From: a virus
Taxonomy: Duplodnaviria; Heunggongvirae; Uroviricota; Caudoviricetes
Reading direction: 5' to 3' (one strand)
Virus record (IMG/VR): IMGVR_UViG_2531839530_000004
DNA length: 16,384 nt
Shown here piece after piece: positions 10,837 through 11,016 of this stretch. The notes beneath the pieces were generated by a model. It was not told the DNA's origin. It searched no databases and saw only the letters and a list, made by a program, of their open reading frames with translations. The position numbers and the translations under genes were made by a program. Within the stretch, counting starts at the first letter, position 1. The number at the start of each line of letters is the position of its first letter.

Positions 10837-11016
10837 TTACCGCCAGTATTCAATGCACATGACCGCCATGAACACCCCTAAAAAAAGGGCATTTATATAT
10901 CCAAATATTAATATCAAAACATCAACTTTTTCCATATACCTTGCTGTGAAGATGATGGGCATACATGATGCGAACAACCAGAACGCAACAAACAAAAACT
11001 GCAATGCGTTTTTCAT
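10837..11016 (-). CDS. Small membrane protein (59 aa, two predicted TM helices)
   Basis: Consensus ribosome-binding site TAGGAGGAATA directly before the ATG at 11016; product MKNALQFLFVAFWLFASCMPIIFTARYMEKVDVLILIFGYINALFLGVFMAVMCIEYWR. Track ORF (72 aa) trimmed to the RBS-supported start. Confidence 0.5.
   Translation of the reverse strand: MKNALQFLFVAFWLFASCMPIIFTARYMEKVDVLILIFGYINALFLGVFMAVMCIEYWR

Follow-up and report, generated by a model that had tools for sequence, protein, structure and literature searches.

A generally unannotated 59-codon frame beside the hok leader of Qin-type prophages is probably a gene for a small two-helix membrane protein

The open reading frame described here, ORF59, occupies positions 10837–11016 on the minus strand of the analysed stretch of viral DNA (16,384 nucleotides, hereafter the window). 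Its translation, a comparison with a diverged paralogue and the helices predicted by AlphaFold2 make it very probably a real protein-coding gene. It is generally unannotated and narrowly distributed, and it ranks with the small prophage membrane proteins, a well-known class, rather than representing a new kind of system. The product is predicted to be a 59-residue helical hairpin of the inner membrane.

An earlier note on this DNA had called the frame an orphan, and this does not strictly hold. An exhaustive HMMER scan of 1.84 billion representatives found a second 59-codon lineage (lineage B; P0081/P0086) at 41% identity to that of the window (lineage A). Both lineages have exactly 59 codons and align without gaps, with 24 of 59 residues identical; the ungapped BLOSUM62 score of 153 compares with –38 ± 15 in shuffles (z 12.6), and none of 200,000 shuffles scored as high. 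Identity at codon positions 1, 2 and 3 is 35, 43 and 29 of 60, respectively, and pN is 0.34 versus a saturated pS of 0.72, with dN/dS of about 0.2. The ORF59 frame is the only one open in both lineages, as each of the other five has stops in at least one of them. Homology between the lineages is at background upstream of the ATG and falls to background again within about 30 nt past the stop. The sense strand is T-rich (38% T, GC 37%), and T at codon position 2 reaches 52% and 47% in the two lineages versus 38% overall, while 58 open codons arise at the same composition in 1.7% of shuffles for ORF59 and in 0.6% for the paralogue. The frame is intact in 112 of 117 copies of lineage A and in all 24 of lineage B (136 of 141 together); among the five remaining copies one carries a frameshift, two appear interrupted or rearranged and two lie at contig ends. 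Frame, length and codon-position pattern are kept in a diverged homologue, as in a genuine coding gene.

The position and strand of the frame and its AGGAGG site are as the earlier note had described them. ORF59 starts at an ATG at 11016 and ends with a TAA stop (10839–10837), giving the product MKNALQFLFVAFWLFASCMPIIFTARYMEKVDVLILIFGYINALFLGVFMAVMCIEYWR, and the Shine-Dalgarno AGGAGG (11021–11026, minus strand) lies 4 nt before the ATG. Taken alone this site is within reach of chance, since the pattern AGGAGG-N3-9-ATG is found twice in the window versus 0.53 expected and 18 of 200 shuffles reach two. It reads AGGGGG in 8 of 33 haplotypes (position 11023), and at the equivalent place lineage B has a weaker AGGGA. 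A 72-aa version with a GTG start at 11055 is called in databases; the extension is closed in the paralogue by an in-frame TAA, so that the 59-aa form is the conserved one.

The strongly hydrophobic two-helix character claimed for the product is borne out: its GRAVY is 1.27, and AlphaFold2, with the family alignment as input, predicts helices at residues 2–25 and 31–58 (mean pLDDT 72.6). Helix 2 extends to residue 58, and as a C-terminal tail there is only E-Y-W-R. The K/R-rich N terminus (MK or MRK), an acidic loop in lineage B and the C-terminal E-x-W-R suggest an N-in/C-in topology with a periplasmic loop of 6–8 residues. Small and polar residues are conserved on one face, namely S17, C18, P20 and T24 in helix 1 and G39, N42, A43 and mostly G47 in helix 2, where they make up a G39-x3-A43-x3-G47 small-residue face plus N42. 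This face may serve as a surface for helix packing or oligomerisation.

Two lineages make up the whole family, which does not reach beyond Escherichia and Shigella. Among 5426 complete E. coli genomes, 1570 carry lineage A (at least 95% nucleotide identity) and 1045 carry lineage B; K-12 has neither. Lineage A also occurs in Shigella, in many IMG/VR prophage contigs and in three phage records, at least one of which is named after an E. coli lysogen. Widely used strains are among the carriers: lineage A is found in ATCC 25922 and in E. coli C-type strains such as C122, besides ECOR13, and lineage B in Nissle 1917. A scan of GTDB genomes found ORF59 only in Shigella and E. coli, a word-indexed protein search returned only copies of it that were at least 74% identical or frameshifted, and a metagenome scan with the two-lineage alignment did not find a third lineage. 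Profile searches, which the earlier note had proposed, gave no match for ORF59 in Pfam, PHROGs, NCBIfam or PADLOC at E ≤ 10; a structure search against viral models gave nothing at E ≤ 0.001 and returned generic helical hairpins only. A full-text literature search for the family peptides and their UniProt ids found nothing, a preprint surveying hok loci does not mention a membrane ORF upstream of hok, and the text of a preprint on small proteins of CFT073 (10.64898/2026.09.28.754932) holds no sequences that could be matched to the family peptide MRKILMYLCISIW. Since K-12 is without ORF59, the family escaped the K-12 small-protein surveys.

Standard RefSeq annotation skips the gene, and some phage records take the wrong strand. 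In the four RefSeq records that we inspected (annotated with PGAP) neither ORF59 nor an antisense ORF is annotated. Two phage GenBank records, PV340562.1 (10959–11210) and ON470612.1 (23105–23356), carry as a feature the antisense ORF of 83–85 aa that corresponds to window 10853–11110 on the plus strand, labelled ‘hornerin’ or hypothetical protein. Probably this is a strand mis-annotation.

Variation within the lineages has to be read with care. In lineage A there are eight substitution columns in ORF59 and all eight are nonsynonymous; counted within both lineages the substitutions are 12 of 12 nonsynonymous and none synonymous (0.8^12 = 0.07, so that the deviation from neutrality is not significant), as one would expect under relaxed or diversifying selection more than under purifying selection at present. 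Divergence amounts to 1–2 per 60 nt from about 11100 to 10740 versus 18 per 60 nt further upstream (loci L006 and L009). As this low divergence spans the non-coding flanks on both sides, it is not evidence of coding constraint, and the low diversity of lineage A reflects instead the recent shared ancestry of a young mosaic patch. Within-lineage dN/dS is uninformative, because the changes are too few and all nonsynonymous and the conservation reaches into the flanks. A minor allele of lineage A, I37M and Y40H, has the lineage B state, so the allele of the window (I37, Y40) is probably derived.

The window belongs to a Qin-type cryptic prophage beside rspB and is 100% identical to E. coli chromosomes. 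Its genes run in the order cspI, lysis cassette, cspB/F, antiterminator Q, ydfU, rem, hokD, relBE, ydfV, flxA and ydfW, followed by a truncated ISNCY transposase, mostly broken nin-type genes, a recE-like remnant, xis and int. In K-12 MG1655 a deletion joins ydfW directly to ydfX, and the ORF59 region is therefore missing there. ORF59 lies in the delayed-early accessory (nin-type) region of Qin/DicB-type lambdoid prophages, both active and cryptic, in the orientation of the early-right operon, and phage records and intact prophages show it in the same place and direction; the accessory-operon placement proposed earlier is thereby confirmed. It is not the only intact gene of its cluster, as had been thought, since a methyltransferase gene (12169–12525) is intact too. 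The promoter end of the early-right operon is deleted in the window. The lysis genes essD, ydfR, rrrQ and rzpQ, with the prophage's own holin, endolysin and spanin, are found at 1033–2600, 8 kb from ORF59. Elsewhere in the window the cspA thermoregulator RNA family matches twice over its full length (431–816 and 3326–3718, minus strand; 113 and 167 bits), upstream of cspI and cspB, as expected for cold-shock genes.

Lineage B has a different address, the ttcA-uspF junction, which is the Rac attachment site, in genomes that include Nissle 1917 and ST131 strains. The island at this junction of phylogroup B2-type E. coli (locus L092, 5310–6300) is the relic of a decayed lambdoid prophage and contains an integrase fragment, a DUF977 remnant, the intact 59-aa ORF, a 3′ remnant of hok and fragments of sitD. 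The DUF977 remnant is C-terminal (55% amino acid identity, E 2e–8), and what is left of hok is its 3′ third with an in-frame stop, 55 nt past the ORF (80% nucleotide identity, E 5e–14). Lineage B thus preserves the order DUF977, ORF59, hok, although in the relic only the ORF is still intact and the other two are dead; as both lineages show this order, it is ancestral to them. Among 17 relic sequences there are 80 variable columns in 2.2 kb, of which the ORF (180 nt) has 2 versus 6.5 expected; the 100 nt upstream of it are as invariant as the ORF. The reduced diversity of the ORF within the relic is suggestive, not conclusive.

Downstream of ORF59 and on the same strand lies the 5′ leader of hok mRNA (10576–10747, minus strand), with the mok start and the region complementary to the antisense Sok RNA. 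It is recognised by the Rfam family RF01794 ‘sok’ with 104.1 bits versus a gathering score of 59 over the full model (1–157), and the match begins 90 nt past the ORF59 stop, without overlap. We place a putative hok promoter at 10754–10781 (minus strand), with a weak –35 element TTGCGG (10781–10776), a 16-nt spacer and a –10 element TAGAAT (10759–10754). Its +1, the G of 10747, is set by the start of the Rfam model and by what we take to be a resemblance to the 5′ end of plasmid R1 hok mRNA, and the promoter falls below the threshold of our sigma-70 consensus scan. The earlier note had seen no obvious terminator before the IS: there is indeed no terminator-like site between ORF59 and the IS, but the space is occupied by the hok promoter and the leader with sok. 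As for the adjacent partner gene that it proposed to look for, the neighbour is this hok/sok leader, a separate and well-known module that is also widespread without ORF59; an antisense RNA partner of ORF59 was recognised neither by Rfam nor by a promoter scan of the opposite strand.

In intact prophages and phages an intact hok gene follows about 260 nt past the ORF59 stop. The intact hok locus L007 (4918–5564) is collinear with window 11223–10577 up to the AT of the hok ATG, and the rest of hok (L007 5549–5812) corresponds at 98.9% identity to window 7303–7039, which is the K-12-type hokD. The hokD reading frame (7134–7289, minus strand) is, by its match to L007, the displaced 3′ half of a hok locus that once stood directly after ORF59, and the Hok protein of the intact locus and that of the window's strain have the identical accession WP_000813254.1. 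According to annotation and breakpoints, a transposon-like insertion of 3274 bp (7303–10576) with relB, relE, ydfV, flxA and the ydfW/ISNCY transposase ORF separates the two halves. Its flanks carry a perfect 15-nt direct repeat, ATAGCCTGCTTCTCC, whose left copy (10577–10591) is the hok Shine-Dalgarno sequence plus the AT of the start codon and whose right copy (7288–7302) lies immediately 5′ of the hokD ATG; this repeat looks like a target-site duplication. The terminal inverted repeats are imperfect (19 of 26 positions match, read by eye), with ends of the TGTTAACACC... and ...GGTGTTGACA type. Since the 15-nt repeat is single-copy in intact loci and inverted repeats are present, the arrangement looks like one transposition into the hok ribosome-binding site, which seems to have left an orphan hok promoter, leader and sok beside ORF59 and a leaderless hokD behind relBE. 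An insertion at this point accounts for the missing mok/sok leader of K-12-type hokD (relF). It also suggests an arrival of relBE as cargo of an ISNCY (IS1202-like) element. An uninterrupted ORF of 437 aa (9189–10502, minus strand) covers both the ISNCY transposase (9459–10502), which RefSeq treats as C-terminally truncated, and the 49-aa YdfW (9189–9338), annotated there as separate; YdfW may be the tail of a chimeric transposase frame.

Although ORF59 adjoins hok in both lineages, the link is not obligatory for hok, since hokD-type modules are present in all genomes and usually come without ORF59. Elsewhere the place immediately upstream of hok holds other genes, such as a DUF551 gene in O157:H7 (L145 1869–2426) or, in strain Ec1117 (L146 1–2112), an AbiH abortive-infection gene with a large hypothetical gene on the opposite strand. 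This is a variable cargo slot, and its contents point to an accessory or defence hotspot.

How ORF59 is expressed can be judged from its surroundings. Its 5′ untranslated stretch (11017–11100, minus strand) shares the low-divergence patch of the ORF, and no promoter was recognised in it: a scan for the sigma-70 consensus, which is blind to weak or activated promoters, found nothing upstream of ORF59 on either strand, and likewise nothing on the coding strand of lineage B. In a complete phage ORF59 would then be read from the early-right promoter, and in the window, with the promoter end of that operon deleted and hok split off, its expression is doubtful. Roles for which the lysogen must express ORF59 become less likely, as neither lineage has a promoter-like site upstream on the coding strand. 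No promoter-like site was recognised on the opposite strand within 10400–11700. We also considered a structured RNA in the ORF59 region and its 5′ part and reject it: the folding z of –1.45 is not significant and Rfam gives nothing over the ORF beyond noise, the only family above threshold being the hok leader/sok downstream. A palindrome of 13 nt, CTTTAGaCTAAAG, is present at about 11119–11131 (minus strand), just past the stop of the upstream gene and about 110 nt before ORF59. It aligns with CTTCAGtCTGAAG in the lineage B locus (L092 5879–5891), and the changes are symmetric (compensatory); it may have arisen by chance or may serve as an operator or a small hairpin, and as upstream identity between the lineages is otherwise at background we treat its conservation as unproven.

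Two readings would deny ORF59 the status of a gene. It might have lost its function or never had one, as a T-rich open frame, hydrophobic by chance and carried along with the hok promoter patch, and several observations agree with this: the base composition, the 12 of 12 nonsynonymous substitutions, the equal conservation of the non-coding flanks in lineage A, the silence of PGAP in the four RefSeq records inspected, and the absence of a recognised promoter in a window where the operon is beheaded. What makes it unlikely is the long-term constraint between the lineages, which have the same length and no indels, an identity that falls from codon position 2 through 1 to 3 and a pN well below pS, together with homology limited to the ORF, enrichment of T at codon position 2 and 136 of 141 copies intact although AT-rich sequence would close quickly. 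The other reading takes the opposite-strand ORF of 83–85 aa as the real gene. That ORF is open in the window and annotated in PV340562 and ON470612, but the corresponding frame of the paralogue has 2 stops and only 18 of 59 identical residues, there is no long antisense ORF in that locus, and the frame runs against the direction of the surrounding operon, so that we regard this reading as very improbable.

For the role of the protein we propose a host-retained or host-beneficial accessory factor of the inner membrane, most likely acting in phage exclusion, with a probability of roughly one in three. The retention of lineage B in a dead relic and the cargo-slot context both speak for benefit to the host. 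The hairpin would pack or self-associate through its conserved small/polar face and, at the inner membrane, would act against incoming phage as superinfection-exclusion proteins do, and such a benefit would explain the intact lineage B within a decayed relic. A lesser possibility is a membrane-damaging toxin or lysis helper that opens a pore or depolarises the membrane, either alone, like GhoT and the type I toxins, or with Hok during induction. Size, hydrophobicity, the two-helix hairpin and the conserved G39-x3-A43-x3-G47 face with N42 in helix 2 suit it, hok is the neighbour in both deep lineages, and a prophage hok/sok locus is reported to aid phage release (PMC8621323). Against it stand the failure to find an antisense RNA, an antitoxin gene or a structured 5′ UTR, the intact lineage B beside a dead hok and with no recognisable partner, the many hok modules without ORF59, the missing charged C-terminal tail and the position outside the lysis cassette (1033–2600); a free-standing toxin with no antidote would also be unexpected in 29% of genomes. 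We give no greater chance to a regulator that binds a host inner-membrane protein (a transporter, sensor kinase or protease), in the way of AcrZ, MgtS, MgrB or lambda CIII-type proteins. Modulating host membrane proteins is what most characterised small E. coli membrane proteins do, a view echoed in the introduction of the CFT073 preprint, each helix has its conserved polar and small residues on a single face, and retention in the decayed relic again suggests a benefit to the host, but the context suggests no target, no homology to the AcrZ, MgtS, MgrB or CIII-type families was found, and such proteins usually have one helix where ORF59 has two. Finally, ORF59 may be a functional third component of prophage hok/sok loci, which modulates Hok insertion, oligomerisation or immunity or shares the hok promoter patch for co-regulation. 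This would explain why the adjacency of the ORF and hok survived divergence to 41% identity and why ORF59 and the hok promoter move as one near-identical mosaic patch. In a related reading the rest of the prophage decayed and E. coli of phylogroup B2 then domesticated lineage B, a membrane protein of phage origin; even taken jointly we consider these last two unlikely.

Time and again, small prophage membrane proteins have been found to exclude phages, to act as toxins or to regulate membrane machines of the host. ORF59 is easily testable, since its start is clear, it exists as two natural alleles and it is carried by an inducible phage, PhiR42_1 (PV340562). A by-product of the analysis is perhaps of more immediate use, since the window shows where K-12-type hokD, a hok gene without mok/sok, apparently comes from, namely from a relBE-carrying element that landed precisely on the ribosome-binding site and start codon of hok and left the orphan leader and sok behind. 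If that leader still yields Sok RNA, action in trans on related hok mRNAs is possible.

Comparison with known systems places ORF59 among several groups and fully within none of them. Like the type I toxins it is a small (<60 aa) hydrophobic membrane peptide, with 59 aa, a GRAVY of 1.27 and two predicted helices, but sequence scans over 10400–11700 recognised no overlapping antisense or divergent small RNA. Hok/Gef proteins are likewise small, hydrophobic and membrane-bound, and they are encoded in the same prophage region and orientation, adjoining ORF59. They have one helix and a periplasmic Cys-containing tail, whereas ORF59 has two helices, no such tail and no match to the Pfam Hok/Gef model (nor to any other in Pfam or NCBIfam at E ≤ 10); an antisense RNA, a mok-like overlapping frame and fbi/tac-type folding were not detected for it. 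GhoT, the 57-aa two-helix membrane toxin of the type V toxin-antitoxin pair ghoST of E. coli, is by its general description of nearly equal length, also with two hydrophobic helices in the inner membrane and no soluble domain, but no sequence relationship was detected (Pfam, NCBIfam and 1.84 billion representatives), and ORF59 sits in a prophage nin-region with no antitoxin gene adjacent. Class II holins and pinholins, among which S68 of phage 21 is a pinholin with two helices and a glycine-zipper face, share with ORF59 two transmembrane helices, a predicted N-in/C-in topology and the G-x3-A-x3-G face (in helix 2 of ORF59), whereas ORF59 lies outside the lysis cassette and has neither a charged hydrophilic C-terminal tail nor a dual start. 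T4 Imm and HK97 gp15 are small phage membrane proteins of superinfection exclusion and immunity and, as they are generally described, short inner-membrane proteins of a phage or prophage like ORF59. Sequence similarity and significant structural similarity to them were not found, nor was a promoter active in the lysogen recognised for ORF59, but the slot of ORF59 elsewhere holds defence cargo (AbiH) and ORF59 is retained in a decayed relic. The likeness to GhoT, to class II holins and pinholins, to T4 Imm-type proteins and to Hok is one of size and hydrophobic architecture only, and these comparisons, drawn from general knowledge, serve as leads.
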